A stretch of 32,000 bases of DNA, taken from assembly GCF_018336915.1 (NCBI RefSeq), contig NZ_CP064923.1, positions 4,320,001 to 4,352,000 of the forward strand, written 5' to 3'. Positions 15,908 through 31,778 of this stretch are shown piece after piece. The DNA is from Acaryochloris marina S15. Its GTDB lineage: Bacteria; Cyanobacteriota; Cyanobacteriia; Thermosynechococcales; Thermosynechococcaceae. The notes below the pieces were generated by a model. That model had not been told where the DNA came from and made no database searches. It worked only from the letters and a program-made list of their open reading frames with translations. Within the stretch, counting starts at the first letter, position 1. Each line of letters begins with the position of its first letter. The translations under genes and the position numbers were made by a program.

Positions 15908-15947
15908 CTCGCAGCTAGCCCTTTGTTATTTCATTTACTGCAAATTC

Positions 15948-17681
15948 ATGGTTGAACAAGCATCAGGAGAAAACCAGCACATCACCGATAATCTTGAACA
16001 ATTGCTCGATATTTTGCCCGAGACATTGCGATCTCACCTGCAACAACACCCCCAACGCAGTGTGATGATTGAAGTGGTGATGGATCTGGGTCGCCAACCG
16101 GAAGCTCGCTTCCCAGGCCAAGCCGAATATTTATCCACAGAACCCATTAGCCGAGACGATTTAGACTATTGCATTCAACGGGTCAGTCACTTCAGTGGTG
16201 ATAACCGGGCCGGTATCGAGCGGACCCTACATCGGATTAGCGCCATGCGCAACCGCCAAGGAGAAGTGATTGGCCTCACCTGTCGAGTGGGTCGTGCCGT
16301 GTTAGGCACCACTGAAATTATTCGCGACCTCGTGGAAAGTGGTCGTTCAATCCTCATGCTGGGACGCCCTGGTGTCGGTAAAACGACAGCCTTGCGAGAA
16401 ATTGCTCGGGTCCTAGCCGATGACCTCCTGAAACGGGTCGTTATTATTGACACCTCTAACGAGATTGCCGGGGATGGCGATATTCCCCACCCTGCCATTG
16501 GTCGCGCCCGACGGATGCAGGTGGCCCGCCCCGAATTACAACATCAGGTCATGATCGAGGCGGTGGAGAACCACACCCCAGAAGTCATCGTAATTGATGA
16601 AATTGGCACCGAATTAGAAGCGGCGGCGGCCCGCACCATTGCTGAACGAGGGGTGCAGTTAATTGGTACCGCCCACGGCAATCGCATCGAAAACCTGCTG
16701 AAAAATCCCACCTTATCTGACTTAGTGGGCGGCATTCAGTCTGTCACCCTGGGAGATGATGAAGCTCGTCGTCGGGGCAGCCAAAAAAGTGTGCTAGAGC
16801 GGAAAGCTCCCCCGACCTTTGATATTGCTGTCGAAATGTCAGAGCGGTCCCGCTGGATTGTGCATGAAGAAGTCGCCAACACGATTGATAATCTCCTGAG
16901 AGGTCGAATTCCCAATCCTCAAGTCCGTACGGTCAGCGATAGCGGCAAGGTCACCATTACCCATGAACTGTCTACTACGCCCATCGCCGAGCCGACCCCC
17001 ATTGAGTCCGCCCCCAGTGGCTGGCGAGCCTCAGGTCGGATGCAGCCCGTTCCAAATCCCGTTGCTCCAGCCAAAACAGATTTCAATGAGTTTCAAACCC
17101 TATTGGATGCATCCTTGCAGCAGCAAGATCAGTATGGCAATACCCTCAATTTCACCGCAGGTCCCAACGGCGAGGATCTGCCCCTCCATGTCTATCCCTA
17201 TGCCGTCAGTCGGTCTCAACTCGATCAGGTGATTACAACCCTGAATTTACCGATTGTGCTCACCAAGGATATGGATCATGCAGACGTGATCTTTGCCTTG
17301 CGATCGCATCTTAAGCATCATTCCAAATTGCGCAATTTAGCCAAGACCCGCCAGGTTCCCATCCACACCGTTAAGTCGAGTACCATTCCTCAAATTGCCA
17401 GAGGTCTACGCCGCCTGGTAAATATGGACGATCCAGGCACCCCAGAGCTGGTGGATCTCAAGCTGTTTTCCGGCAGTAATGATGACGATGAGATGGAAGC
17501 TCTAGAAGAAGCCAGACTTGCGGTTGAGCAAATCGTTATTCCCAAAAAGCAGCCCGTAGAGTTACTGCCCCGATCTGCCAGCATTCGCAAAATGCAGCAT
17601 GAGTTGATTGAGCATTACCGTTTGCAGTCTCGCAGTTTTGGCGAAGATCCGAATCGCCGACTTCGGATTTATCCTGCTTAG
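15948..17681 (+). CDS. Ycf45-like P-loop ATPase with C-terminal R3H nucleic-acid-binding domain
   Basis: The 577-aa ORF has Walker A GRPGVGKTT and Walker B VIVIDEIG of a SpoIIIAA/ycf45-like ATPase core. The C-terminus ...RLQSRSFGEDPNRRLRIYPA is R3H-like. Confidence 0.75.
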   Translation: MVEQASGENQHITDNLEQLLDILPETLRSHLQQHPQRSVMIEVVMDLGRQPEARFPGQAEYLSTEPISRDDLDYCIQRVSHFSGDNRAGIERTLHRISAMRNRQGEVIGLTCRVGRAVLGTTEIIRDLVESGRSILMLGRPGVGKTTALREIARVLADDLLKRVVIIDTSNEIAGDGDIPHPAIGRARRMQVARPELQHQVMIEAVENHTPEVIVIDEIGTELEAAAARTIAERGVQLIGTAHGNRIENLLKNPTLSDLVGGIQSVTLGDDEARRRGSQKSVLERKAPPTFDIAVEMSERSRWIVHEEVANTIDNLLRGRIPNPQVRTVSDSGKVTITHELSTTPIAEPTPIESAPSGWRASGRMQPVPNPVAPAKTDFNEFQTLLDASLQQQDQYGNTLNFTAGPNGEDLPLHVYPYAVSRSQLDQVITTLNLPIVLTKDMDHADVIFALRSHLKHHSKLRNLAKTRQVPIHTVKSSTIPQIARGLRRLVNMDDPGTPELVDLKLFSGSNDDDEMEALEEARLAVEQIVIPKKQPVELLPRSASIRKMQHELIEHYRLQSRSFGEDPNRRLRIYPA

Positions 17682-17767
17682 TTCGGACACTCAGCCTCAA
17701 AAACGGGTGGGATAGCACCACCGTTTCAGGTAAGATTCTCTGGCAAGGCTTACTAAGGATTGGCTTA

Positions 17768-18418
17768 ATGTACCTGTTTTTAGACACTGCAGATATTAAG
17801 GCCTGGGACTTTTGGCTGAGTAAGGGCTTATTTTATGGGGTCACAACCAATCCCACCTTATTGGAACGAGCACATATCCCTTGCACCCTCGACCAACTCA
17901 AAAAGCTAGCTATAGAAGCCTTTCAGCGAGGCGCTCAAGAAATTCATTTACAGACCTGGGGCACTGAAGTTGAAGATTTAGTTCGTCGGGGATGTGCGAT
18001 CGCAGCCATCGATTCCCGCGTAGTGGTTAAAGTGCCCATTACTTTGGCTGGTACAGAAGCAGCTGCACAGTTAATTCAGCAAGGAATTCGGGTTACTTTG
18101 ACTGGAGTATATGCCGTTCATCAAGCATTGATTGCTGCAGCCCTTAAGGCTGATTATGCTGCCCCCTATTTGGGGCGAATGACGGATCTGGGGCAAGATG
18201 GCAGGCAAGATATCATTTCGATGCAAAGAGGCTTGAATGGTGTCAATAGTTCCACAAAGCTTTTGGTGGCAAGTATCCGAAGTGTTGATGACATCACTGA
18301 TCTAACTCAGGAAACCCTCGATACGTTTACGGTATCACCTGCGATCGCAGAGCAACTCTTCCAAGTCGATGCAACTATAGATGCTGCACTAGCCTTTGAA
18401 AAAGCGGCACAAAATTAA
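17768..18418 (+). CDS. tal: transaldolase / fructose-6-phosphate aldolase family (short type)
   Basis: The 216-aa ORF begins MYLFLDTADI...GVTTNPTLL and contains VKVP (the Schiff-base Lys region) and APYLGR, as in small transaldolases. Confidence 0.85.
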   Translation: MYLFLDTADIKAWDFWLSKGLFYGVTTNPTLLERAHIPCTLDQLKKLAIEAFQRGAQEIHLQTWGTEVEDLVRRGCAIAAIDSRVVVKVPITLAGTEAAAQLIQQGIRVTLTGVYAVHQALIAAALKADYAAPYLGRMTDLGQDGRQDIISMQRGLNGVNSSTKLLVASIRSVDDITDLTQETLDTFTVSPAIAEQLFQVDATIDAALAFEKAAQN

Positions 18419-21400
18419 TGGGACTCAATTCCTAACGATTCTGCAGTAATGGGTAGTTTGACGATAAAAGTTGTTCCTTGACTAGCAATACTCTCAAAGG
18501 TGATCGTCCCTTGGTGAAGCTCTACAGACTTTTTAACAATTGCTAGCCCTAGTCCAGTTCCTTGTATCTGACCAACATTTGTGGCGCGTTGGAAAGATTC
18601 AAAAAGATGTGGTTGATCAGATTCAGGAATACCAATTCCCTGATCCTTAATCAAAAATATAACCTCATCATTAGAGAAAGTTACAGTAAAACAAACGATA
18701 GAACTTTCTGGAGAGTATTTAATTGCATTAGAAAGCAAATTACTTAGGATTTGTCTCAGTATCTTTTCATCTGAGAAGCAAGTAGTTTGTTTTCCTTCTA
18801 AAACATATTCAATGTTTTGACCACGCTTAGTATTCAACTGAAACTCTTCAACTAAGCTACTACAAAAAACTGTGAGATCTATAGATACGGGGTTAAACTC
18901 TGTCTTACCTACATCTGCTTTACTAAGGACTAAGACATCATCTAGTAGCCCAGTCATATGTTTCACATTTCTCTGTATACGGTCAAGATAAGAATGCTGC
19001 TTCTCCGTTTCCCATCCCTGACCATAATGTTTTATCAATTCCGTCGTCCCCAAAATTGCTGTTAATGGTGTACGAAATTCATGAGATGTCATAGAAATAA
19101 AACGAGATTTCAACTCATTGATTTCTCGTTCAGCTTGTTCTCTAGCTTGTGACTTCTGTAAATCTTCATAGAGATATGCATTTTCCAGAGAAATAGCTGC
19201 TTGTGTACATAGAATTTTCAGTATTTCAAGATGATCATTTCTAAAAGAGTCATAAGCTGCATTATTCTCCATATAAACCATCCCTACTACAGATGCTTGA
19301 TTAACTAAAGGAATACAAAGTAAAGACTTGACAGACTTATCAACAAAATATTCATCATTAAAAAAAACAGATTCATTTGAAGAAGTGCTTAATACTATAG
19401 ATTTTGAAGTGCGGCCAACATAATTAATTATTGACAATGGCAAAACACTGCTATCACACAAACTCACAGATTCTCTAATTGATATTTTATTATCGACAGA
19501 AGATGCTTCCAACAAATAATTATCTTCTCTTTTTATAATCAAAAAACCAATTTGTGCCCCTGCATTCAGCATTAATACTTTAATCATTTTTTCAAGAAGA
19601 TTCTCAAGTACAATCTCTTCTGAAATTGTTTGAGAGGCCTTTAGTATAGATGCTAAATCTAGATCAGTAAGACTAGAAGTAGTAGACAATAAATTCTTAG
19701 CTGATTGAGGCTTTAAAAAAAGATTGCTATTAGAATTATCATTAAAAATCGTAGAATAAAGCTTTTGTAAATGTTTCAATTTAGCAAAAGCTCCCCAGTT
19801 AAAATATGTATAATATGCTTCTGTTATATACAGTTCTCCTATCTTATTTCTTTCTAATGAAAAGTAATATTCTGCTGCTAATTCATAAGCGATTGCTTCT
19901 TCATATTGAAAGCAAGTCTTGTTAACAGCTTTCAGAGCTTTTTCATATAAGTCAGATGCTTTATTATCACCTAGAACTCTTAAAATCTCAGCTTTAACTA
20001 AAAAATATTTATGCAAACAGTTACTAGGAGAATTTTTTGACCAGACTTTCAGCTTATCAAGGTTAATATTTGCTTGTCGAAGTACACTTGACTTTGACTT
20101 ACTGTCTACAGTTTTCAATAAAGCTAAAGCATATATGAAAACATATAAAGGAATATAAGCTATGCCAAGTGCAGTTTCCTCTATTTCAGATGAATACTTA
20201 GAATACTTTAATGAAGTACTATAATCATGAAAAATAAAAGACAAAAAAGATTTTGATAAATAAACAGAAAATATCGCTACATTATTTTTCGCATTAACTA
20301 TTGCTGGAAAATCAACATTCTCATTAAAGCTGTCCCCTTCTAAAAGACAACATTCTTTCTCTTTAAAGGCAAGGTTTACTGCTACTTGCTTCCATAACTT
20401 TGCATGAATTAATTGAAATTCTTGTTTTTGCTTTGAGATCAGTTCGATATAATTAGTATGTTCATTAACAACATTACTAATGTTTTCTCCAGCTAAAAAT
20501 AAATAGCTACAATAAAATGAAGCGCAATGGCATGCATTTTCAGTATCGCCAAATGATAAGCCATAATTTATTCCTTCTTGAAGAGGGGAAAGTGAATGAG
20601 TGATATCTTCACACCAATGCCTGATAAAAACATTAAAAACCAGAAAGATTTTTGAGAACTGATCTTTAGCTCCTAACTGTTTAGCTATCTCAATAGCAAC
20701 CTGACCAAATTGATAGCCACTTACCATTTGATTAAGCTTTCCACATAGAATAACTCCATAGCTAGCATATGCAAAGCTAGATAAACTAGAATTCCCATAC
20801 TTTAGAGATATATCGACCATCCTAAATATTACTAAAGGGAATAATTTTGGTGAATAGATAAAAATCGCAGGTACTACATTAGTTAAAATTCTCATCGCTG
20901 ATAGATATTGCTTATTATCCATCTTCTTAATTAGTAAAAGTTGAGATGGCTTTCCGGCTAACATTAGTTTTACTTTAATAAGCAATAAATTTATCAAAAT
21001 TATAAATTCGGATTCATTCTTGGAAAATTTTACATTAATCTTTTCAAGAAATTCAAATGCTTTTCTAATTGCTATATCCATCCTATTTTGAGCAATATCT
21101 GAAAGCACTTGAATTTCAACAATTTTAGCTATATCTAATACATTATTCGAAGATTCAATTACTTTGGTAGAATATTCTTCAACTTTTTCATAGTCTGTCG
21201 ATAAATATGCAGACTCAACAAATTCAGTATAAATTTCAAGAAAGAGAGAATAACAATTATCCCAAGAGTAATCAGACAAAAAATCCAAACTGATTTGAAA
21301 ATATATATTCGCAGCTTCATATGAGGTTGATTCTTTTGCTTTCTTGCCAGCAATTAAATTAAGCTCAGAAAGATATAGCCTATTAATATCTTCATCTACT

Positions 21401-23637
21401 AATGAGACACCATAATTCAATTGATTCACTATATCGAAGATATATGTACTTAAGTCATCTTTCCTCAAATGATTCAATAGGATTTTTCCTATCTTGTAAT
21501 GAGTTAGTTTTGTTTTAGAAGAAGAAACTGAAGTATAAGCAGCTTGCTGCACCCGATCATGCAAGAATTGGTATTCTACATTCTCTACATCTTCTTGCTT
21601 AAATCTAGAAGGTAGATTATTTATAACCAGTGCTAGCTTATACGACTTACTAACCGGCAATATCAATCCACTCTGTAACGCTGGCCATAGCTTTACAACA
21701 ACATCTTTTGGTTGAGAAGAAGAGACAACTGACAGAAAATTTAAATCAAATTTATTGCCTATACATGATGCAAGATATAAGAGATTTTGAGTATCAGTAG
21801 GAAGTTGAAAAATGCTATTTTGCATCAACTCAACTATACTTAGACTAACAAGGTCAAGGTTTTGAACTTTGTTTTCATAGAAACTCCATTTCCCTTCATT
21901 AAAATCGAACTTAATTACTTTTTTTTCATAAAAAATCTTAATTAGCTGACTAATATGAAAAGGATTACCTTTTGACATATCAAATATGATTTTAACTAAT
22001 GGCTCAACGGAAGAATAAGTAAGGTCAAAAGTATCTTCAATAATCTCTTTAACATATTCATTCCCTAAACTTTTTATATTTATATGCTTGATATTGATTT
22101 TTAAATTCTCTATATTTTTAATAAAAAATCTTAGGGGGTGTGTTTTAGATATTTCATTATCTCGATAAGATAAGATCATTAAAAGATGACTATCAGAAGC
22201 ATCTACAAGCAATTCCTCTAAGAACTTAATTGAAGAGAAATCGAACCATTGTAAATCATCTAAAAATACAACAATAGGATGTTCAGATTGTGTAAAAACA
22301 TTTACAAATTTTTTAAATACTCTTAAATACCGCTTTTGTGACTCTATAGCATTTAGCTCTTTCACTTCTGGTTGAGGCCCAATAATTAGCTCAAGATCAG
22401 GAATATTATCAATAATAATATTCGCATTTTCACTGAGTTCTTGAACAAGAATTTCTTTCCAAAAAATGATTTTATGTTCTGGTTCTGAAAGTATTTGCTG
22501 AATTAAATTCTGAAAAGCGTTTAGGATGGCTGAGTTAGGAGTATCTCTTTGAAATTGATTTTGTTTCCCCTGTACAAAATACCCTCTATTTGTGATAGCC
22601 GATTTATTTAATTCTTGAATTAGACTAGTTTTTCCTACACCTGAATAGCCACTTACAAGAACAACTTCGCCAATTCCTTGAGATATATTATCGAATGACA
22701 ATAATAGTTCACTCATCTCAAATTTTCTGCCATAAAGTTTTTGTGGCAGAAAAAATTGACTTCTCTTATCTAACTTACCTGGCACAAAACCAAGTACTAT
22801 TTCACTTCTAATATATTCATTTTTAAACCATTCTAAATCCGACTTCAAACCCAATGCACTTTGATAACGATCTTCTGCATCTTTCTCAATTAATTTCATA
22901 ATAATGTCTGATATAGGTGAAGGAATACTTTCATCTAGAACTATCGGAGCCTTCGGAGTATCAGACAAATGGGAATAAACCATTTCTAATAAGTCTATTG
23001 CTTGAAATGGGCATTGCCCTATGAGTAATTCATAGAACGTTATACCTAAAGAATAAAGGTCAGATCGATGATCAACACAGCGATTCATTCTTCCTGTTTG
23101 CTCAGGCGATATATATGCTGGAGTACCTTCTATTGAATAAGAGCTTTCATAAAATGTTACTTCTTGTGGCAAACAAGAAGCAATGCTTAGATCCGTTATT
23201 TTAACCTGCTTTGTAACTGGATTAATTAATATATTTGATGGATTTATATCTTTATGAATAATATCTTTTGAATGGAGCTCACTTACAGCTTGAGCTAATT
23301 GAGTTGATATTTCAAGAAAATCTTGTAAACCAACTGAATTATTTATAATATATTCTCGTAAAGATATAGAATCAAAATATTCCTTAATCAATAAAGTAGT
23401 ACTTTTATCACTTTCAATACCAATGACTTTTATAATATTATTTGATGAAACAGTATTTGTAACTTTATATTCATAGTGCAATCGACTTATTTCAGAAAGA
23501 GATGGATATTTAGATCTGAGCGTTTTAACAACTACTTGCTTGCCAGACTTTTTCTCAAAACCTTTATAGATAATTATTGACAGCCCACAATATAGTTGTT
23601 CTAATAGAATATATTTTCCATCATAATCTAAATGCAT
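18415..23637 (-). CDS. multidomain sensor: Ser/Thr protein kinase-like domain + P-loop (AAA_16/STAND) + long helical repeat region + GAF + HisKA/HATPase_c histidine kinase
   Basis: The 1740-aa ORF has GGAGGA 3 nt before its ATG. The kinase domain spans aa ~8-280 (VVVK38, HKD130INPSN, SPE177-179). The P-loop is GYSGVGKT (aa 330-337) and the Walker B is VVFLDD (aa 456-461). The H-box SH1519EFRTPL, N-box NLLSNAIKY, G1 DQGIGI and G2 GTGLGLAIV are all present. The gene is very AT-rich. Confidence 0.9.
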   Translation of the reverse strand: MHLDYDGKYILLEQLYCGLSIIIYKGFEKKSGKQVVVKTLRSKYPSLSEISRLHYEYKVTNTVSSNNIIKVIGIESDKSTTLLIKEYFDSISLREYIINNSVGLQDFLEISTQLAQAVSELHSKDIIHKDINPSNILINPVTKQVKITDLSIASCLPQEVTFYESSYSIEGTPAYISPEQTGRMNRCVDHRSDLYSLGITFYELLIGQCPFQAIDLLEMVYSHLSDTPKAPIVLDESIPSPISDIIMKLIEKDAEDRYQSALGLKSDLEWFKNEYIRSEIVLGFVPGKLDKRSQFFLPQKLYGRKFEMSELLLSFDNISQGIGEVVLVSGYSGVGKTSLIQELNKSAITNRGYFVQGKQNQFQRDTPNSAILNAFQNLIQQILSEPEHKIIFWKEILVQELSENANIIIDNIPDLELIIGPQPEVKELNAIESQKRYLRVFKKFVNVFTQSEHPIVVFLDDLQWFDFSSIKFLEELLVDASDSHLLMILSYRDNEISKTHPLRFFIKNIENLKINIKHINIKSLGNEYVKEIIEDTFDLTYSSVEPLVKIIFDMSKGNPFHISQLIKIFYEKKVIKFDFNEGKWSFYENKVQNLDLVSLSIVELMQNSIFQLPTDTQNLLYLASCIGNKFDLNFLSVVSSSQPKDVVVKLWPALQSGLILPVSKSYKLALVINNLPSRFKQEDVENVEYQFLHDRVQQAAYTSVSSSKTKLTHYKIGKILLNHLRKDDLSTYIFDIVNQLNYGVSLVDEDINRLYLSELNLIAGKKAKESTSYEAANIYFQISLDFLSDYSWDNCYSLFLEIYTEFVESAYLSTDYEKVEEYSTKVIESSNNVLDIAKIVEIQVLSDIAQNRMDIAIRKAFEFLEKINVKFSKNESEFIILINLLLIKVKLMLAGKPSQLLLIKKMDNKQYLSAMRILTNVVPAIFIYSPKLFPLVIFRMVDISLKYGNSSLSSFAYASYGVILCGKLNQMVSGYQFGQVAIEIAKQLGAKDQFSKIFLVFNVFIRHWCEDITHSLSPLQEGINYGLSFGDTENACHCASFYCSYLFLAGENISNVVNEHTNYIELISKQKQEFQLIHAKLWKQVAVNLAFKEKECCLLEGDSFNENVDFPAIVNAKNNVAIFSVYLSKSFLSFIFHDYSTSLKYSKYSSEIEETALGIAYIPLYVFIYALALLKTVDSKSKSSVLRQANINLDKLKVWSKNSPSNCLHKYFLVKAEILRVLGDNKASDLYEKALKAVNKTCFQYEEAIAYELAAEYYFSLERNKIGELYITEAYYTYFNWGAFAKLKHLQKLYSTIFNDNSNSNLFLKPQSAKNLLSTTSSLTDLDLASILKASQTISEEIVLENLLEKMIKVLMLNAGAQIGFLIIKREDNYLLEASSVDNKISIRESVSLCDSSVLPLSIINYVGRTSKSIVLSTSSNESVFFNDEYFVDKSVKSLLCIPLVNQASVVGMVYMENNAAYDSFRNDHLEILKILCTQAAISLENAYLYEDLQKSQAREQAEREINELKSRFISMTSHEFRTPLTAILGTTELIKHYGQGWETEKQHSYLDRIQRNVKHMTGLLDDVLVLSKADVGKTEFNPVSIDLTVFCSSLVEEFQLNTKRGQNIEYVLEGKQTTCFSDEKILRQILSNLLSNAIKYSPESSIVCFTVTFSNDEVIFLIKDQGIGIPESDQPHLFESFQRATNVGQIQGTGLGLAIVKKSVELHQGTITFESIASQGTTFIVKLPITAESLGIESH

Positions 23638-23946
23638 ATGTCCTCCAGTACTTACTCAATTACTAAATCTATTATTTAAAGATATATATTATTCCTAAAA
23701 ATATCTTTTTTCATATCTCATTCATGATTTATATATATTATCTTCTCCCATATATCATTTCATTCTTTTATTTCTTGATATCTATAGAGATCTGACGTGA
23801 GTTGTGAGACTTATATTTAACCTAAATGGACACTGGTAAAGATTTCAGCCTCTCTACATCTCACGATTGATTTCAGATTGCTATAGATCTTTAAACAGCA
23901 TCCTTCCCCTTGAATGGAATGAGTCTATTTAGCAATGGATATAAGA

Positions 23947-23955
23947 CACTCGAAG
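23947..23955. repeat. left 9-bp target-site duplication (CACTCGAAG) of MITE copy A
   Basis: The identical 9-mer recurs at 24169-24177, immediately outside the two terminal inverted repeats. Confidence 0.8.
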
Positions 23956-24168
23956 CTGACTGCCTGACATATCTCTGAAAGCCTTTTCCTCGTATGGGTT
24001 TGCACTGTAAGAATAGCAACGTTGCCTCCTAAGGCAAGAGAGTTGGTAGTACGGTTTGGTTGCGTTTGACGTGCGAACAATGCCAAAAGTTAGCCTTATA
24101 CACCCTGCTATTCAGCATCCAAAAGCCACGTATCTAAAAGCTTTGAGGCACTTATGTCAGGCAGTCAG
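23956..24168. mobile_element. MITE-like non-autonomous element, copy A (213 bp, intact ends)
   Basis: It has perfect 16-bp terminal inverted repeats: CTGACTGCCTGACATA at 23956-23971 and TATGTCAGGCAGTCAG at 24153-24168. Weaker inverted similarity extends inward. It is flanked by the 9-bp direct repeat CACTCGAAG, has no coding capacity, and has a second diverged copy about 80 bp downstream. Confidence 0.8.
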
Positions 24169-24177
24169 CACTCGAAG
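24169..24177. repeat. right 9-bp target-site duplication (CACTCGAAG) of MITE copy A
   Basis: See the left duplication at 23947-23955. Confidence 0.8.
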
Positions 24178-24249
24178 ACTTGCTGAACACCATGAATAGC
24201 TTTGATTTCGCTATTATTCTGCTGAGTTAAGGTTTTCAAATTGATGGTA

Positions 24250-24460
24250 ATCCAAGCCTGATATATATCTGAAAGCCTTTTACTTGTATGGATTTACACT
24301 GTGAGAATAGCAACGCTGCCCCCTAAGGTAAAAGAGTTGGTAATACGGTTTGGTTGTGTTTGACGTGCGAACAATGCCAAAAGTTAGCCTTATACCCTGC
24401 TATTCAGCACCCAAAAGCTATGTTTCTAAAGGCTTTAAGGTACTTATATCAAGCAGTCAG
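24250..24460. mobile_element. MITE-like element, copy B (diverged, left terminus degraded)
   Basis: It is collinear with copy A and in the same orientation. My hand alignment gives about 22 substitutions plus one 2-nt indel over about 207 aligned nt. The right end TATATCAAGCAGTCAG is recognisable. The first 6 nt (ATCCAA versus CTGACT) do not match, and I found no flanking duplication. Confidence 0.7.
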
Positions 24461-25308
24461 TATGAAAGCATCTATCGCAAACCAACCCATCAATCTTATA
24501 GATAAAATTCTTCTTACCATTTTATCTATGAGCCCCTGACAAATGCATTTTCTATCCATAGAGTTAATAACAAGTTCGTACTATCACTCTGATATCCGGT
24601 AACTATCACCATCTATCGCAACAGCATCCACAATGGATACGAACGACCATTAAGCAACCAATAACTTGCTTCACAGCATTGATCTGTTCTTAGATCTCTC
24701 AACCATCATTCTATAGGGCCATCTTAGTTTTTTTGCAAATAACTTAAATCAGCCTTGATCAACTTTGGCTCACATCAAAGCTAGATAATTTTCACATATG
24801 ATGATCCAACTATCGATTCACATAATATAAAGATATTGGCAATTCTATATTGCTCATTCTCATAGCCAATATAATCGAGTATTAAACAAAAAAAGTTTTT
24901 AAGATTTGACGTTTAAGATATAAATTTTTTTTGTTGCCTGAAAAGTCTGTATTTGAGTAAGTACAAAAGATATTTCTAAATAGAATACCTATATAAAAAC
25001 CTTATATTTCACCATATTTACATTGCAGGCTAAACATTATAGTTAATATTTTTTACAAGAAGATTAAAGCTTAACAACTTGTTACAATACTAAGAAGTAT
25101 CTACGCGTTATTACTTATATCTAGTCAATGCTCATCACTTTCAATACGTATTTTTACTGATGAATCATCAATAGTAATTAGCTTATTCTTTCATATAAGT
25201 TCTTAACTATGAGAGCCAAATAAATTTACTTATTCTTGTGTAATTGAATACAATTTTCATGAGCTATTATATCAATTTAAAAATATAAAATTCATGAAAT
25301 AGTCAGCA

Positions 25309-25324
25309 CTTAATAATTATTAAG
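25309..25324. promoter_or_regulatory. perfect 16-bp palindrome CTTAATAATTATTAAG about 83 bp upstream of the 892-aa gene (candidate operator)
   Basis: Perfect dyad symmetry was read directly from the sequence. AT-rich context raises the chance expectation, so function is unproven. Confidence 0.3.
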
Positions 25325-25406
25325 ATATTCAAGATAAATATTATTAAAAGTGAAATATATATCTTGATCTTCCATAGCCTATCTTTAACTTCAAGGGGAT
25401 TTAGAA

Positions 25407-28085
25407 ATGCAAGAGATTCTTAGTTTAATCGAAATGCGAAAAAGTATATTTTCAAAATTACCATTCTTTAAATATTTACAAGATGATAGAATTAATCCTA
25501 GACAGAGATTAGCTTTTGCTCCATGTGCAGCTCATTTCATAATGAGTTTTGGTGATTTAAATAAGCATATTCTTAGAGTAGAACCAACAAAAGACCCAAT
25601 TCAGAAATTAGTTAATAAGCATACATATGAAGATGATAATCATTGGGAATGGTTTCTTGAAGACATTGAAAATCTTGGTTTCAATAAAACTCAAAACTTC
25701 AGTGATACATTACGCTTTCTATGGAGTAATGAGACAAAAACTCCTAGATGGATTAGCTTAGAATTATATAAGCTAGCTAGCTATGCATCACCTGAGTTAA
25801 AGCTAGTAATGATTGAAGCAATTGAGGCTACTGGTAGTATTTTTCTTTCTATTGTTCATACAGTAGCAGATGAGCTACAAAACTCAACCAAGCAGAAATA
25901 TAAGTATTTTGGAGCACATCACTTTCAAGTTGATTCTAATCATAGTATTGTTTCCAATAGCTCTGAGAACAATCTAGATAAAATCAATTTGTCTCTTGAA
26001 GATAAAGAAGAAGCGATTGAAATAGTCAATAAAGTTTTTGATGTTTTCACAGATTTCACAAATGAGCTTTTAAACTTTGCTAAAGACCATAGTCATAAAA
26101 GGCTCACATATAGTGAATCAATTATTGAACATGAATATTTAATAATTGGCGGAGGCCCTGCTGGTTTGCAGCTAGGATATTATCTTCAAAAATCTGGAGA
26201 TGATTACGCGATTTTGGAGGCAGGAAGCTCTCCAGGAACTTTCTTTAAAAAGTACCCTCGCCATCGAAAACTTATATCAATCAATAAAAGAAATACTGGA
26301 TATAGCGACCCTGAGATAAACTTACGTTGGGACTGGAATTCATTATTGAGTGATAATAAAGATCTGCTATTCAAGAATTATAGTAAAAAATATTTTCCTG
26401 ATGCTGATTCCCTAGTTAATTATCTAGAAGATTATGCAAATCACTTTTCTCTAAATATTCAATACGGTGTCAAAATCACTCAAATCACTAAAGACAAAAA
26501 GTTTATATTAACTGATCATCTTGGAAAAGTTTACTCTTGCAAGCATTTGATAATAGCTACTGGTTGTTCTAAACTTTATCTTCCTGATATACCCGGCATT
26601 GAATTAGCTGAGAAATATACTAGCGTATCAGTAAAACCAGACAACTTTGAGAATCAAAGAATTTTAGTTATTGGCAAAGGAAATTCTGCATTTGAAACTG
26701 CTGACAATTTAATTGATACTGCAGCAACAATACATATTTGCAGCCCCAATCCAATCTCTATGGCTTGGAAGACCAAGTATGTTGGGCATCTCCGTGCTGT
26801 AAACAACAATTTTTTAGATACTTATCAACTTAAATCTCAAAACCTGATTCTTAATGCTCATATTAATAATATCAAGCAAAATGAGCATGGTAAGTTCATC
26901 GTCAATGTTTCTTACACCCATGCAAATGGTGAAGTAGAAGATCTCGAATATGATCGGATTATCGCTTGTACTGGTTTCCGCTTTGATGACAGCATTTTTG
27001 ATAACTCATGTAAACCAAATCTTACGATTAATAATCGTTTCCCTGATCAAACAAGTGCTTGGGAATCTACTAATGTAAAAGATCTATTTTTTGCAGGTAT
27101 TCTCATGCATATGAGAGACTTTAAAGAGAACCAATCAGGCTTTATTCACGGCTTTAGATACAATATTAAAGCTCTCCACCAAATTTTTGAGCGCCGTTTC
27201 CACCACAAAGCCTGGCAGCATCAAAACTTAGAATTAATTCCACAAACATTCACCGATGTAATTCTTAAGCGAGTGAATCAAAGTTCTGCATTATGGCAGC
27301 AAACAGGCTTTCTATGTGATGTCATCTTTGTATCCGAAGATCAGCAGCAAGGAAAGTATTACCAAGAAGTTCCTCAAGACTATCTTTTTGACAGTGATTT
27401 AGGAAAACACAACCACTACTACACTATTACGTTGGAATTCGGACATGAATACCTAGATGCCTTTCCTGATCCATTCGCCATTGAGCGAGTTCATAAAGAT
27501 GACATACATAATGCAGAGCAAAGTCCCAGTCTTCACCCCATCATCCGGCGTTATTACCAAGGCAAATTAGTAGCTGAGCATCATATTATCGAAGATATCG
27601 CCAGTGAATGGAAAGAAGAGGTACATATTCAACCACTGTTAAAGTTTATGACTGAGCAGCTAAACGACTCCCAAGGAATCGGTACTCATCTTCTTGCGGC
27701 AGGACTGCTCACGTCAGAGCAGTTGGAAGTCGCCTTAGCGGAACAAGAACTGGAAACATCAGCTCGTTTAGGAGATGTTATACAAAAACGGGGTTGGGTA
27801 CAAAAACGAACCATTCAATTTCTATTGCATCAAGTCAACAATACGTTGGTTGATAATCCAGAACTTAGCGCCTGTGCTCAGTTGGGAGCAAATCTAGTTG
27901 AAGCAGGCTTAGTAACATCAACACAAGTTGACGAGGCATTACTAGAACAGCAAATCTCGAACAAACGCTTAGGAGAAATTTTGGTAAACCACGGCTGGGT
28001 AACTCCACAAACCGTTGAATACATGATGAAGCATCTCTCCCAGGCAAACGTTACTGTTCAGCCTGAAGTCGCTGTACTGAATTAA
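25407..28085 (+). CDS. three-part fusion protein: heme-oxygenase-like diiron oxidase (HDO)-like domain + FAD/NAD(P)H flavoprotein monooxygenase-like core + two C-terminal MshEN/T2SSE_N-like modules
   Basis: The 892-aa ORF has the SD-like AAGGGGA about 9 nt before its ATG. Aa 1-232 are all-helical with E75-x3-H79, E137/E140 and H172-x3-D176-x2-H179. Aa 243-590 carry GGGPAG (248-253), ATG (384-386), GKGNSA (423-428) and FFAG (561-564). Aa 757-877 hold four 24-residue RLGxxLLxxGLLxxxxLxxxLxxQ-like repeats. Confidence 0.85.
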   Translation: MQEILSLIEMRKSIFSKLPFFKYLQDDRINPRQRLAFAPCAAHFIMSFGDLNKHILRVEPTKDPIQKLVNKHTYEDDNHWEWFLEDIENLGFNKTQNFSDTLRFLWSNETKTPRWISLELYKLASYASPELKLVMIEAIEATGSIFLSIVHTVADELQNSTKQKYKYFGAHHFQVDSNHSIVSNSSENNLDKINLSLEDKEEAIEIVNKVFDVFTDFTNELLNFAKDHSHKRLTYSESIIEHEYLIIGGGPAGLQLGYYLQKSGDDYAILEAGSSPGTFFKKYPRHRKLISINKRNTGYSDPEINLRWDWNSLLSDNKDLLFKNYSKKYFPDADSLVNYLEDYANHFSLNIQYGVKITQITKDKKFILTDHLGKVYSCKHLIIATGCSKLYLPDIPGIELAEKYTSVSVKPDNFENQRILVIGKGNSAFETADNLIDTAATIHICSPNPISMAWKTKYVGHLRAVNNNFLDTYQLKSQNLILNAHINNIKQNEHGKFIVNVSYTHANGEVEDLEYDRIIACTGFRFDDSIFDNSCKPNLTINNRFPDQTSAWESTNVKDLFFAGILMHMRDFKENQSGFIHGFRYNIKALHQIFERRFHHKAWQHQNLELIPQTFTDVILKRVNQSSALWQQTGFLCDVIFVSEDQQQGKYYQEVPQDYLFDSDLGKHNHYYTITLEFGHEYLDAFPDPFAIERVHKDDIHNAEQSPSLHPIIRRYYQGKLVAEHHIIEDIASEWKEEVHIQPLLKFMTEQLNDSQGIGTHLLAAGLLTSEQLEVALAEQELETSARLGDVIQKRGWVQKRTIQFLLHQVNNTLVDNPELSACAQLGANLVEAGLVTSTQVDEALLEQQISNKRLGEILVNHGWVTPQTVEYMMKHLSQANVTVQPEVAVLN

Positions 28086-28215: not shown

Positions 28216-30252
28216 TTAAGACTTGAGATAGGTATAGCCTCTGAGACTACGCTCATAATTTTTTAGGAGAAGTTGGGCTTCTGGTAATGTGATGTGCTGT
28301 TCTTGCAATGCGGCTTCAGACTGTTTCCGAATTTCTTCTATCAGATCATCAGCGTCATATTGGACATATTCCAGTACCTCGGTGATCGTGTCGCCCTTGA
28401 CCACATGGGCAATGTGGTACCCCATCGGGGTTAGATCAATATGAACGACATTGGTATCACCAAATAAATTATGGAGATTGCCCATGACCTCTTGATAAGC
28501 CCCATTTAGAAACATCCCTAAGTAATAGGGTTCATTGGGCTTTAAGGTATGTAGTTCCAGGATTGGTTTTGTGTCGCGAGAGTAGATAAATTGATCGATT
28601 TTGCCATCACTATCGCAGGTGAGATCGACGAGAGTGCCCCTTTGAGTTGGCTCTTCTTCAAGACGGTGAATCGGCATAATCGGAAATAGCTGACCAATTG
28701 CCCAGGTATCGGGGGCAGATTGAAAAACAGAAAGATTGGTGTAATACAGTGACGCCATCCGACGTTCGAGATCTTCTAAGTCAACGGCAACGTCATCGTC
28801 TTGCCGTGCGATCGCAAGTATCTTCTGACAACAGGCCCCACATAATCGCTCTACCCTGGCCCGCCCCTGCAGACTCAGATAGCCAAACCCAAACAGACTA
28901 ACCGCTTCTTCCTTGAACTGCAAAGCATCATGATAGGCTTCCTGATAGTTCTCGGCATCAATAGTTTGATAGGTTTCCCAGAGATTCCGAATAATCAGAT
29001 GTTCATCAGCTTGGGCCGGTTCTGGCGTCAGGTCTAGGGTTTCACTACTACCCAACACATTCATAATCAGCACAGACTGGTGAGAGGCGATGGCTCGCCC
29101 ACTTTCACTCACCAATGTGGGCACGGAGATATCCGCTTCAGCACAGGCTTCTTTAACCTCGGCAACCACATCATTGGCATAGTTCTGCATGTTGTAGTTT
29201 TTAGACGCTGCCGAGTTGCTTTTCGATCCGTCGTAATCAACCCCTAGGCCACCGCCCACATCCAAGAACTTCATGTTGGCTCCTAATCGGGCCAGCTCGA
29301 CATAGATTTGGCTGGCTTCCCGCAGGGCATCTTTGATCACACTGATGGCTGAGATTTGAGAGCCAATATGGAAATGGAGCAATTGTAAGGAATCAAGTAG
29401 ATTAGCGACCCGCAGATGCTCAATGGCAGCCACGACTTCTGGAATGTTGAGACCGAATTTGGCGCGATCCCCCGCACTCGTTCCCCATCGACCAATTCCC
29501 TTGGCACTGAGCTTGGCCCGCACCCCCAAAATGGGCTGAATCTGAAGCCGACGGCTGGCTTCGATCACTAGATCCACTTCTTCTAATTGTTCAATGACAA
29601 TAATCGCCTGATGCCCCAAACGCTGGGCCAGCATGGCGGTTTCGACATATTCCAAATCTTTATAGCCATTGCAAATCAGCAATGCACCTGGGGTTTTAAG
29701 GGAGGCAATGGCAATTAGTAATTCCGGTTTGGAACCTGCCTCTAATCCAAACTGGTGGGGCTGACCAAAGCGAACTAGATCTTCGACTAGATGACGCTGT
29801 TGGTTACACTTGACGGGAAAAACCCCTCGGTAGCGCCCCGGATAGCTGTAGCGTGCGATCGCTTTAGCGAAACAGGCATTTAAGCGCTCAATTCGATCCG
29901 CCAAAATGTCTGAAAACCTGATCAGCAAAGGAGCATGGATATCTCGCTGCTGCAGGGACTGGACTAGCTCATACAGGTCTAAAGAGCCCCCTCGATCGGC
30001 TTTGGGCGATACCGTCACATGGCCTGCTGCATTAACGGAAAAATAGGGTTCTCCCCACCCCCGAATCCGGTAGAGTTTTTCGCTTTCCTCAATCGACCAA
30101 GCAACCGCTGAGTCTGCTTCAAGGCTATCTTCTGGAGGCGATAGATGTTCTGGACGCATCGATGCTGTTGGCGGACTACTATTACTCAACTCTGCCGCTA
30201 GGGTTTGAGGAATTTTGGTAGCCTTATCTTCACGGTTTCGACCGTTTTCCAT
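28216..30252 (-). CDS. speA: biosynthetic arginine decarboxylase
   Basis: The 678-aa ORF reads W.IEESEKLYRIRGWGEPYFSVNAAGHVTVSP, then FPVKCNQ (PLP Lys region), HFHIGSQ and GGGLGVDYDG, typical of SpeA. The true start may be an internal Met (for example M32). Confidence 0.9.
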   Translation of the reverse strand: MENGRNREDKATKIPQTLAAELSNSSPPTASMRPEHLSPPEDSLEADSAVAWSIEESEKLYRIRGWGEPYFSVNAAGHVTVSPKADRGGSLDLYELVQSLQQRDIHAPLLIRFSDILADRIERLNACFAKAIARYSYPGRYRGVFPVKCNQQRHLVEDLVRFGQPHQFGLEAGSKPELLIAIASLKTPGALLICNGYKDLEYVETAMLAQRLGHQAIIVIEQLEEVDLVIEASRRLQIQPILGVRAKLSAKGIGRWGTSAGDRAKFGLNIPEVVAAIEHLRVANLLDSLQLLHFHIGSQISAISVIKDALREASQIYVELARLGANMKFLDVGGGLGVDYDGSKSNSAASKNYNMQNYANDVVAEVKEACAEADISVPTLVSESGRAIASHQSVLIMNVLGSSETLDLTPEPAQADEHLIIRNLWETYQTIDAENYQEAYHDALQFKEEAVSLFGFGYLSLQGRARVERLCGACCQKILAIARQDDDVAVDLEDLERRMASLYYTNLSVFQSAPDTWAIGQLFPIMPIHRLEEEPTQRGTLVDLTCDSDGKIDQFIYSRDTKPILELHTLKPNEPYYLGMFLNGAYQEVMGNLHNLFGDTNVVHIDLTPMGYHIAHVVKGDTITEVLEYVQYDADDLIEEIRKQSEAALQEQHITLPEAQLLLKNYERSLRGYTYLKS

Positions 30253-30289
30253 GCTGTTTGCCTATGCGCGACCCGACACTTCAGACATC

Positions 30290-30529
30290 TTAGCTGAGTT
30301 TCAGGGCGCAGGCGGGAACATCATCCCAGGACTCCACGGTTCTCAAACGGGCCACCCATCCTGCTTGCTTTTGATACTCCGTCAAATTGTCTTGAAAAGA
30401 AGTGTGGCAGTCTTGGGCATGTTGGGCATCACAACAGGCAATACAGGCATACATTAACCCAGCCGGATCGAGCTGTTCATTTACCCAAATCGTCTTTGAT
30501 TGGCTCATATCGTCCGCCGTCAAATCCAT
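30290..30529 (-). CDS. hypothetical small Cys-rich protein
   Basis: The 79-aa ORF lies between psaC and speA on the same strand and contains the cluster CIACCDAQHAQDCH. Its codon pattern looks native. I recognise no family and see no obvious SD. Confidence 0.45.
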   Translation of the reverse strand: MDLTADDMSQSKTIWVNEQLDPAGLMYACIACCDAQHAQDCHTSFQDNLTEYQKQAGWVARLRTVESWDDVPACALKLS

Positions 30530-30541
30530 AGCTAAAACACG

Positions 30542-30569
30542 AAAAGAGGAAGCCGAGGCTCCCTCTTTT
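30542..30569 (-). terminator. rho-independent terminator downstream of psaC
   Basis: The minus-strand RNA reads AAAAGAGGGAGC-CUCG-GCUUCCUCUUUU, about 12 bp including one G-U pair, followed by CGUGUUUU. It lies 55 nt after the psaC stop. Confidence 0.55.
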
Positions 30570-30623
30570 TAAAAATGCAACACAGCAAAATTGACTCAAG
30601 ATTTACGATGAAAGCGAAAACGC

Positions 30624-30929
<306 letters not shown>

Positions 30930-31076
30930 TCAAAGACAACTGTATAGTCAAGGATCCTATAACGAGTTTAGTTTACAGCAGTGCATTTGCCACTTCGACA
31001 AAAATGAGAGGAAACTTCAAACAATGTTACTTAACGAAAGTCTCTCTAAGCCTTCTATCTAGACTCTTTGTATCCC

Positions 31077-31778
31077 TCAAGGCCGCCGAATAAACAGCTG
31101 TGTGAAGAAATATTCTTCGCCCTGACGCACTACACCTACTCCCGTATCGGTCACTTCGGCCCGAAGCATATTCCGCCGATGACCTGGGCTATCCAACCAT
31201 CCTTTAATGGCAATGGATACCGGATCCGGTGCATTATCATTCAGGGCCAAGTTTTCGGCTACTAAATTGAACGGCACCCCTGCATTTAATAATCGTTCCA
31301 AAGCCGTATTGCCCTGGGGGTCCGCATGACTAAAGAAGTTATGGTCCGCCATATTCCGGCTATGCTGACGGGCCACATGGGCGACGTTTGCATTCCACTG
31401 CAGGGGCTGTAAACCATAGGACTGGCGAATATCATTGACTTCTGCATAAATCAGTTGAGAGAAGTTCCCTTGGGCACCCACTATGGGATTAGGCCTTGAT
31501 TTCTGAGGCGGGATGGGGGCGGGGACTTCTAGTACGGGTTCAGGCCCAGGCCGGGGCACTGACTGCCGCCGTCGCGGCTGCCGACGGATCGTAGGGGCTT
31601 GGCGGGGCATTTTGCAGTCAAACGGGGTAGGAAACGGCAGCTTAATGGGCAGAGAGATACAGCCCATTAGCAACCAGGACAATGACTTCTTAAAAGCCGG
31701 CTGTAGGCGTTTTTTCTGGTCTTCAACCTCAAAAGGGTCAGACGCCGTCAGGGCCAGAGACAAGCTGGACTTAGCCAT
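31077..31778 (-). CDS. CAP/SCP (PR-1-like) domain protein with N-terminal anchor and Pro/Arg-rich linker
   Basis: The 233-aa ORF has a C-terminal block HSRNMADHNFFSHADPQGNTALERL...GWLDSPGHRRNML typical of bacterial CAP (YkwD-like) domains. The hydrophobic stretch LSWLLMGCISLPI is followed by RRQPRRRQSVPRPGPEP. Confidence 0.75.
   Translation of the reverse strand: MAKSSLSLALTASDPFEVEDQKKRLQPAFKKSLSWLLMGCISLPIKLPFPTPFDCKMPRQAPTIRRQPRRRQSVPRPGPEPVLEVPAPIPPQKSRPNPIVGAQGNFSQLIYAEVNDIRQSYGLQPLQWNANVAHVARQHSRNMADHNFFSHADPQGNTALERLLNAGVPFNLVAENLALNDNAPDPVSIAIKGWLDSPGHRRNMLRAEVTDTGVGVVRQGEEYFFTQLFIRRP

Follow-up and report, generated by a model that had tools for sequence, protein, structure and literature searches.

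A probable AetD/SktA-family diiron oxidase domain fused to a flavoprotein and MshEN-like modules in Acaryochloris marina S15

The window analyzed here, a 32,000-nucleotide stretch of the Acaryochloris marina S15 genome (contig NZ_CP064923.1, positions 4,320,001 to 4,352,000), encodes an 892-residue protein in which an N-terminal heme-oxygenase-like diiron oxidase (HDO) domain is followed by a flavoprotein domain and two MshEN-like modules, the latter probable receptors of cyclic di-GMP (c-di-GMP). We regard it as quite probable, and as the best overall explanation of the sequence and the predicted structure, that residues 1-231 constitute a functional oxidase of the AetD/SktA family, likely with an aromatic L-amino acid as its substrate. 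A preliminary description of this DNA, made from the sequence alone, had already proposed an HDO-type domain whose dimetal ligand set is complete and non-degenerate, and homology to AetD, model superposition, and family-wide ligand conservation all bear that proposal out. The HDO domain itself gave zero Pfam or NCBIfam matches even at E ≤ 1, and its family was identified only through a sequence search of the PDB; as no model in either collection recognizes the domain, the family is invisible to routine annotation. The fusion protein is 100% identical to an Acaryochloris marina entry labeled merely 'NAD(P)-binding domain-containing protein'. The gene, its HDO domain, and the predicted iron ligands are located as follows:

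25407..28085, + strand: whole open reading frame (ORF), 892 amino acids (aa); HDO domain, flavoprotein domain, and two MshEN-like modules (translation, homology)
25407..26099, + strand: residues 1-231, heme-oxygenase-like diiron oxidase domain of the AetD/SktA family (homology, AlphaFold2 model)
25632..25643, + strand: core helix 1 ligands D76 (25632-25634) and H79 (25641-25643), equivalent to AetD D76 (Fe2, bidentate) and H79 (Fe1)
25824..25826, + strand: core helix 2 ligand E140, equivalent to AetD E140 (Fe2)
25920..25943, + strand: core helix 3 motif H172-x3-D176-x2-H179, equivalent to AetD H172 (Fe1), E176 (bridge), and H179 (Fe2)

The N-terminal diiron oxidase domain

Using phmmer against the PDB, residues 1-231 aligned with AetD at E = 3e-50, with zero gaps and a shared residue numbering. 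Over these 231 ungapped residues, the domain is 37.2% identical to AetD and 51.5% identical to SktA. SktA itself was recovered in our survey (locus L023, Nostoc punctiforme NIES-2108), and its identity to AetD, 39.4%, agrees with the published value of 39% (PMC11869266). The homology boundary agrees with the range given in the preliminary description, 25407-26102, which corresponds to residues 1-232. The AlphaFold2 (AF2) model of the domain forms the seven-helix heme-oxygenase-like bundle, with a predicted local distance difference test score (pLDDT) of 90.4 and a predicted template-modeling score (pTM) of 0.88. By Foldseek and backbone superposition, it matched all AetD entries, Fe2- and substrate-bound forms included, with template-modeling (TM) scores of 0.88-0.94 and root-mean-square deviations (rmsd) of 1.1-2.3 Å over ~228 residues, and the same domain within the full-length model superposed equally well in Foldseek. 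Confidence in the model falls at residues 180-190, a drop that matches the flexible part of AetD helix alpha-3, which is disordered until Fe2 binds (PMC11611611).

After AetD, the next structural neighbors were 3dde (known by its fold, function unknown), UndA, a TenA homolog, CADD, and BesC, with TM scores of 0.56-0.73 and identities of 11-16%. Placement in a different branch of the fold, whether among TenA thiaminases, PqqC-like proteins, true heme oxygenases, or CADD-type Mn/Fe self-sacrificing para-aminobenzoate (pABA) synthases, strikes us as barely credible: such folds do appear in the structure search (TM 0.43-0.73), but they trail AetD in E-value (1e-2 to 1e-4 versus 1e-15), identity (9-16% versus 37-38%), and rmsd (4-8 versus 1.1-2.3 Å). 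From homology and the model, we firmly assign residues 1-231 to the AetD/SktA family as an HDO predicted to be intact.

In AetD crystals, H79 and H172 are ligands of Fe1; D76 (bidentate), E140, and H179 are ligands of Fe2; and E176 is bridging (PMC11611611). Replacement of these iron ligands by Ala abolishes activity (PMC10654658; ligand roles PMC11611611). In sequence, the window domain presents the same 3-His/3-carboxylate set over three core helices, with D76 and H79 on helix 64-90, E140 on helix 129-161, and H172, D176, and H179 on helix 170-179, each column-equivalent to AetD. We traced the conservation of these positions in an alignment of 166 family members, free-standing as well as fused. 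Position 76 is Asp in 164 and Glu in 2 of them; H79 and E140 are present in 166/166, H172 in 165, and H179 in 163. Position 176 is Glu in 112 and Asp in 54, making D176 of the window protein a conservative E176D change.

Translation of 25407..28085 places all ten residues named in the preliminary description (E75, H79, E81, E85, E137, E140, H171, H172, D176, and H179) where it had put them, along with the H172-x3-D176-x2-H179 motif, which reads HFQVDSNH, and the spacings of 32 residues from E140 to H172 and 35 from E137 to H172. Its choice of ligands needs revision in part. By equivalence to AetD, the carboxylate ligand of helix 1 is D76 rather than E75, which is kept in 162/166 relatives yet is no ligand in AetD, so that an E75A variant would remove no ligand. 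Of the two upstream Glu candidates, E140 is indeed the helix 2 ligand, whereas E137 is a non-ligand in AetD, though conserved in 156/166. The remaining residues that had been counted into the set, E81, E85, and H171, vary across the family and are non-ligands.

The bare H-x3-[DE]-x2-H motif is weak evidence, because it arises in 5% of composition-matched shuffles of the HDO domain. The composite pattern [DE]xxH...E...HxxxD/ExxH, spacings included, occurs in 0.15% of shuffles and in only 1 of 72 six-frame ORFs of the window, namely the fusion ORF. What raises the ligand motif above chance is the homology to AetD together with the near-invariant ligand columns in the 166 relatives. The same columns bear on whether the N-terminal domain might be noncatalytic, either a relic or a regulatory domain that senses a ligand or metal for the flavoenzyme to which it is joined. 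Although it escapes Pfam and NCBIfam and, at 47% identity between Acaryochloris strains, diverges faster than any other part of the protein, every ligand residue is retained in that 47%-identical allele (assembly L091), as are the substrate anchors, and the ligands recur in 163-166 of 166 relatives. Such retention despite divergence points to purifying selection on the active site, and we consider a relic or purely regulatory domain very unlikely.

Core helix 1 carries a second H-x3-D-x2-H spacing, H72-x3-D76-x2-H79 (HTYEDDNH, window 25620-25643). H72 is conserved in 157/166 relatives and lies outside the six AetD iron ligands; it could be a second-sphere or metal-entry residue.

Substrate pocket and the link to tryptophan

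The substrate-site positions of AetD map onto the window domain as follows:

25536..26048, + strand: substrate-site residues F44 (25536), F48 (25548), Y167 (25905), and F214 (26046) (AetD equivalence, conservation)

In AetD, F44 and F48 make stacking contacts with the indole, a hydrogen bond from Y167 holds the substrate carboxylate, and F48 stands in for the extra Glu ligand of HDOs that are not substrate-triggered (PMC11611611, PMC10654658), which leaves Fe1 open. These hallmarks of substrate-triggered, amino-acid-chelating HDOs (F48, Y167, and F44) are all present in the window domain, and they are widely shared: F48 is invariant in the family alignment (A2), Y167 is found in 159/166 relatives, and F44 in 161/166; F214 is likewise conserved in the family. 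T142 and F214 are common to the window domain and SktA; AetD carries A142 and S214 (PMC13108848), and S214 occurs in only 4/166 relatives. Read over positions 43/47/139/142/146/171/176/214, the pocket signature is HSITFHDF in the window domain, HNTTMFEF in SktA, and ANMAISES in AetD. The window domain thus has neither the SktA-type pocket (T139, T142, M146, F214), carrying I139, T142, F146, and F214 instead, nor the AetD-specific one (M139, A142, S214), having I139, T142, and F214.

Several observations weigh against our overall explanation. In a neighbor-joining tree, it falls outside the SktA clade, in a separate clade of fused proteins, and its pocket differs from both AetD and SktA at positions 139, 146, and 171. 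AetD has also been crystallized with Tyr and Phe (8zvg, 8zvh), which leaves room for an aromatic amino acid other than Trp as the substrate. At the level of the whole protein, the pTM of the full-length model is only 0.59, too low to define how the domains pack.

An independent tie of the family to tryptophan comes from its genomic and domain associations and from the membership of SktA. Trp halogenase genes adjoin the HDO gene in 34 of 80 loci, and in two proteins of ~605 aa (P0277, P0293), a Trp dimethylallyltransferase domain is fused N-terminal to the HDO domain. Within the window, neither an SktB-type Trp halogenase nor an SktC-type flavin-dependent monooxygenase (FMO) was found, and no prenyltransferase lies at the locus either. 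An alternative is that the domain acts on a non-Trp substrate, such as Tyr, Phe, some other aromatic amino acid in modified form, or a carboxylate that is not an amino acid, with chemistry unlike that of AetD and SktA. Its position outside the SktA clade, its own pocket signature, the binding of Tyr and Phe in AetD crystals, and the lack of a halogenase or prenyltransferase at the window locus would suit this alternative, but the head-group and indole-stacking residues (Y167, F44, F48, and the open Fe1) are conserved, and the family-wide links are all to tryptophan enzymes; we judge it rather unlikely. By analogy with AetD and SktA, the substrate is likely an aromatic amino acid, most probably tryptophan or a close derivative, and we assign no product.

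In the mechanism we propose for the domain as an AetD/SktA-type oxidase, the core helices would present D76 and H79, E140, and H172, D176, and H179 around a two-iron site. Following AetD and SktA, an aromatic L-amino acid would chelate Fe1 through its amine and carboxylate, with Y167 holding the carboxylate and F44, F48, and F214 packing on the ring. Substrate binding would then trigger O2 activation to a peroxo-diferric species, which may cleave or rearrange the alanyl side chain.

The family also takes other forms. An exhaustive family profile search returned 834 representative clusters at E ≤ 0.001, and some members (P0284, P0301, and others; ~500-543 aa) carry two tandem HDO domains per protein.

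The fused flavoprotein and the MshEN-like modules

The remainder of the fusion protein comprises the following features:

26133..27101, + strand: residues 243-565, flavoprotein core with two dinucleotide-binding motifs (Pfam Pyr_redox_3 at 5e-50, Foldseek)
26148-26165, + strand: residues 248-253, GGGPAG motif (motif search)
26673-26690, + strand: residues 423-428, GKGNSA motif (motif search)
27102..27611, + strand: residues 566-735, conserved alpha/beta C-terminal extension of the flavoprotein (predicted secondary structure, alignment)
27675-27836, + strand: residues 757-810, MshEN-like module 1 (NCBIfam NF053729)
27879-28040, + strand: residues 825-878, MshEN-like module 2 (NCBIfam NF053729)

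Residues 243-565 have both Rossmann motifs and the fold of a flavoprotein with two dinucleotide-binding domains, and the fused flavoprotein (residues 243-735) is predicted to bind FAD and NAD(P)H. The extension at residues 566-735 has many invariant columns among 38 orthologs and zero matches to any Pfam or NCBIfam family. In Foldseek, the best structures for the core were Bdr/YpdA (7a7b, TM 0.79), the Stenotrophomonas FMO SMFMO (4a9w, 0.76), and 3d1c (0.75). The closest structures thus include the disulfide reductase Bdr as well as monooxygenases, a mixture that counts against any firm assignment of the flavoprotein's role. The FMO signature FxGxxxHxxx[Y/F] is absent between the Rossmann motifs; its sole match, FAGILMHMRDF at 562, follows both motifs, out of the canonical place, so that monooxygenase and reductase chemistry cannot be told apart on this basis.

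Our preferred role, held at slightly short of even confidence, is that the flavoprotein oxygenates the indole substrate or product. A possible, if doubtful, alternative is a dedicated NAD(P)H reductase that re-reduces the diferric cluster, making the protein a self-sufficient HDO comparable to self-sufficient P450s; on this reading, the flavoprotein becomes a testable natural candidate for the electron donor that serves HDOs physiologically. The top structural neighbor is the NADPH-dependent reductase Bdr/YpdA (TM 0.79), thioredoxin-reductase (TrxR)-type ferredoxin-NADP reductases and IruO are also matched, the linker between the HDO domain and the flavoprotein is only ~10 residues, and flavoproteins of this type were observed only in HDO fusions or with their gene directly downstream of that of an HDO. 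SktA-type chemistry, being a two-electron substrate oxidation with O2, also calls for two external electrons per turnover, and the in vitro reductants used so far are only ascorbate or Fe(II) (PMC11869266, PMC11611611). Against a reductase, many family members lack the flavoprotein (Nostoc skt-type, Microcoleus, and O-methyltransferase-type loci), SktA functions without it, and it takes the gene-order slot of tailoring enzymes (halogenase, O-methyltransferase). The equally good matches to SMFMO, 3d1c, and 4usq and an NCBIfam ArsO hit suggest monooxygenases, and the conserved 170-residue extension resembles a substrate-binding element more.

Three further identities for the flavoprotein were considered and set aside. 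A fusion of SktA with SktC was rejected, since identity to the SktC-type FMO is only 22%, and that over just part of the flavoprotein's length; in Tolypothrix, moreover, the flavoprotein and an SktC-type FMO coexist as separate neighboring genes, which also counts against it. An AetF-like single-component Trp halogenase (group B2 FMO with catalytic Lys258) is not supported: AetF appears neither in the phmmer and profile matches in the PDB nor among the 50 best Foldseek hits, and its relatives AncFMO and ZvPNO reach a TM of only ~0.58. A thioredoxin-reductase-type disulfide reductase is at odds with the missing CxxC motif.

At the C-terminus, the c-di-GMP motif profile NF053729 matched two stretches at 86-93 bits, against a cut-off of 38, and a PDB search matched the modules to the N-terminal domains of PilF and MshE. 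The canonical MshEN domain consists of tandem 24-residue motifs of the form RLGxxhhxxGhhxxxxLxxxLxxQ, in which the hydrophobic positions are reported to weigh most for affinity (PMC5013675). Both window modules retain the Gly and hydrophobic positions. It speaks against canonical binding that motif I starts with G757 and Q825, respectively, instead of Arg, and that motif II lacks the final Gln in both. With the affinity-critical hydrophobic positions kept, c-di-GMP binding is plausible, and judging from the sequence the two modules probably bind this messenger and couple activity to it. NF053729 also matched partner methyltransferases as well as free-standing flavoproteins and HDO proteins, with scores above its cut-off save for the Altericista methyltransferase; the occurrence of the motif on differing enzymes suggests that a c-di-GMP module has been attached repeatedly within this type of locus. 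Few c-di-GMP effectors are known in cyanobacteria (PMC10124867). Among the HDO-adjacent methyltransferases with an N-terminal MshEN-like motif, that of Lusitaniella (L003, 10751-11701) scored 50 bits and that of Altericista (L006, 9351-10598) 36.7 bits, just below the cut-off of 38.

In the fusion enzyme, the flavoprotein would bind FAD and NAD(P)H and either oxygenate the indole or supply electrons, the MshEN-like modules would gate activity by c-di-GMP, and the whole may operate as a module with the giant sensor kinase encoded next to it.

Genomic setting and comparison with known systems

We recorded domain architectures for 240 retrieved proteins. A homolog search with the N-terminal domain alone missed the window's own protein and other three-part fusions, which a full-length query returned; a word-index limit is the probable cause. 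The counts are:

HDO alone: 97
Flavoprotein alone: 69
HDO-flavoprotein-MshEN: 43
HDO-MshEN: 24
Flavoprotein-MshEN: 7
HDO-flavoprotein: 1

In 3/3 cases examined, a free-standing flavoprotein gene lies directly after the HDO gene. A protein of Acaryochloris sp. 'Moss Beach' (P0143, 492 aa) is 99% identical but covers only the C-terminal 55% (partial flavoprotein and the MshEN modules); its gene appears truncated, disrupted, or mis-called in this near-identical strain.

For the survey of loci, one genome was taken per species; 277 genomes held a relative, and 80 loci were analyzed. The gene next to the fusion gene in the window, and the island that both occupy, are as follows:

18415..23637, - strand: 1740-aa partner protein with Pkinase, AAA_16 (STAND), long middle region, GAF, HisKA, and HATPase_c (Pfam)
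23638..25406, strand not applicable: non-coding spacer of 1.77 kb between the divergent genes, with two direct repeats
18415..28085, strand not applicable: low-GC island of kinase gene, spacer, and fusion gene only, ~30-36% GC versus ~50% in the flanks

The partner kinase is transcribed divergently from the fusion gene, and an ortholog of it adjoins the HDO gene in 69 of the 80 cyanobacterial loci; of the 11 loci lacking it, 5 are interrupted by a contig end. The genes between or after the kinase-HDO pair vary: Nostoc has a halogenase and an FMO, while Scytonema, Tolypothrix, Stigonema, and Aliinostoc have the flavoprotein, other lineages an O-methyltransferase, and Microcoleus no extra gene. 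One Microcoleus locus holds a second HDO paralog ~3 kb downstream of the first (L065, 13625-14389). In Nostoc punctiforme NIES-2108, sktA-C are followed by a convergent Pkinase/AAA_16/GAF/His-kinase gene (L023, 14104-19728, - strand) orthologous to the window kinase (1036 bits); the skt cluster was published as a biosynthetic cluster made up of three genes (SktA, SktB, SktC), the kinase not included (PMC11869266). An anti-phage defense island was considered and rejected, since PADLOC matched the kinase only through generic Ser/Thr-kinase domains and gave no meaningful match to the fusion protein.

The island is flanked by core genes of ~50% GC, a transaldolase-like gene on one side and an arginine decarboxylase gene on the other, and two Acaryochloris-like assemblies (L090 and L091) have the same synteny with the island at the same chromosomal position. 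Farther out, the flank at 14771-18418 encodes LdpA (an Fe-S protein of circadian input), an AAA/PTPase/R3H protein, and the transaldolase-like protein, and that at 28216-31778 encodes the arginine decarboxylase and a CAP-domain protein. Protein identities between the window and L091, the more distant of the two relatives, are:

Flanking proteins (LdpA, AAA/PTPase/R3H, transaldolase-like, arginine decarboxylase): 91-98%
Kinase, whole: 49%
Kinase, Pkinase / AAA_16 / middle / GAF: 49 / 51 / 37-40 / 53%
Kinase, HisKA / HATPase_c: 94 / 83%
Fusion protein, whole: 63%
HDO domain: 47%
Flavoprotein: 62-66%
MshEN modules: 81 and 91%

Divergence is highest at the center of the island (37-53% protein and 50-65% DNA identity) and declines toward the outer ends of both genes, the DNA identity profile having the same shape as the protein divergence. 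The CAP-domain protein (gene 31077..31778) is merely 74-75% identical in both relatives. Either recombination that replaced alleles or the joint diversification of a synthase and its sensor would be consistent with the island divergence. The pattern was not found in 13 Microcoleus loci, which show at most mild dips of a few percent, and we treat the hypervariable island as an observation on Acaryochloris.

The spacer is the least conserved stretch between strains (26-54% identity). Its direct repeats, at 23962-24168 and 24256-24460, are ~210 nt long, 86-91% identical, and spaced with a period of ~293 nt; their 24-nt core has no other copy in the window, and the spacer gave no Rfam match at E ≤ 1.

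In the literature searched, we found no description of the three-part fusion, of the recurrent c-di-GMP module, or of the near-universal kinase neighbor; the catalytic domain itself adds one more member to a family already known. Only two members of that family, AetD and SktA, have been characterized, both handled as stand-alone natural-product enzymes, and all remaining SktA homologs are stated to be of unknown function (PMC11869266). In the window gene, the HDO core is joined to an NAD(P)H flavoprotein and a probable c-di-GMP receptor, and the fusion offers a testable idea, c-di-GMP control of a small-molecule-forming oxidase in cyanobacteria. The near-constant sensor-kinase neighbor, found at the skt cluster too, moves the question from which metabolite is made to which signal or response is served, with the kinase-HDO pair a possible synthase-sensor pair. 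Carried further, the kinase and HDO-fusion genes might form a strain-variable signal-synthase/receptor cassette, in which the diiron oxidase with its flavoprotein, controlled by c-di-GMP, makes a Trp-derived molecule (of the indole or skatole type, possibly with cyanide as a co-product) that is sensed by the kinase. We think this quite improbable. If it held, the SktA-type 'natural product' enzymes of cyanobacteria would be primarily signaling enzymes, and in Acaryochloris the locus would resemble a pherotype locus in its behavior, synthase and kinase sensor diverging together while the output ends are conserved.

Among known systems, SktA, the skatole synthase of Nostoc punctiforme NIES-2108 (PMC11869266), is the closest characterized relative, with the six ligand positions, F44, F48, Y167, T142, and F214 in common and an orthologous giant Ser/Thr-His kinase gene likewise flanking its own (L023). 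It differs in being free-standing (237 aa) and encoded with the halogenase SktB and the FMO SktC, whereas the window locus is without a halogenase, and in having T139, M146, F171, and E176 where the window domain has I139, F146, H171, and D176. AetD, the Aetokthonos hydrillicola nitrile synthase (PDB 8ji2-8ji7, 8twn/8twt/8tww), provides the sole solved structures of the family and shares with the window domain its residue numbering, its ligand set, and the flexibility of helix alpha-3. Unlike the window protein, AetD is a single-domain enzyme of a toxin gene cluster, and it has E176, S214 (the 7-Br contact), M139, and A142 in place of D176, F214, I139, and T142.

SznF resembles the window protein in that an HDO is fused to a second catalytic domain, a multi-domain form that a 2026 review notes as exceptional among characterized HDOs (PMC13108848). 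It is, however, an N-oxygenase that carries an extra Glu ligand (3-His/4-carboxylate) and does not depend on substrate triggering (PMC11611611); where the window protein has a flavoprotein, SznF has a cupin, and a nucleotide-messenger module is absent from it. UndA, BesC, and CADD share the fold, the 3-His/3-carboxylate logic, and the H-x3-[D/E]-x2-H motif on core helix 3, but are only 11-15% identical and act on a fatty acid, 4-Cl-lysine, and protein Tyr/Lys, respectively; the order of Fe1 ligands in the AetD sequence also differs from theirs (PMC10654658). The window MshEN-like modules have the two 24-residue half-motifs, the Leu/Gly/hydrophobic pattern, and the 5-6-residue spacer of MshEN domains (V. 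cholerae MshE, PilF, NfrB; PMC5013675), but stand in tandem on an oxidase, as opposed to a secretion ATPase or a glycosyltransferase elsewhere.

Bdr/YpdA, SMFMO, and 3d1c are only 18-20% identical to the flavoprotein, which differs from them in its extra 170-residue C-terminal domain and in lacking a CxxC motif. The comQXP and agr loci are polymorphic signal-synthase/receptor cassettes, and the Acaryochloris island recalls them as a two-gene cassette at a fixed chromosomal site, with divergence in the putative synthase domain and in the non-output part of the kinase and a conserved His-kinase output end. It differs from them in that the enzyme classes are unrelated, that the pattern is seen in Acaryochloris only and not in Microcoleus, and that the signal here is putative.

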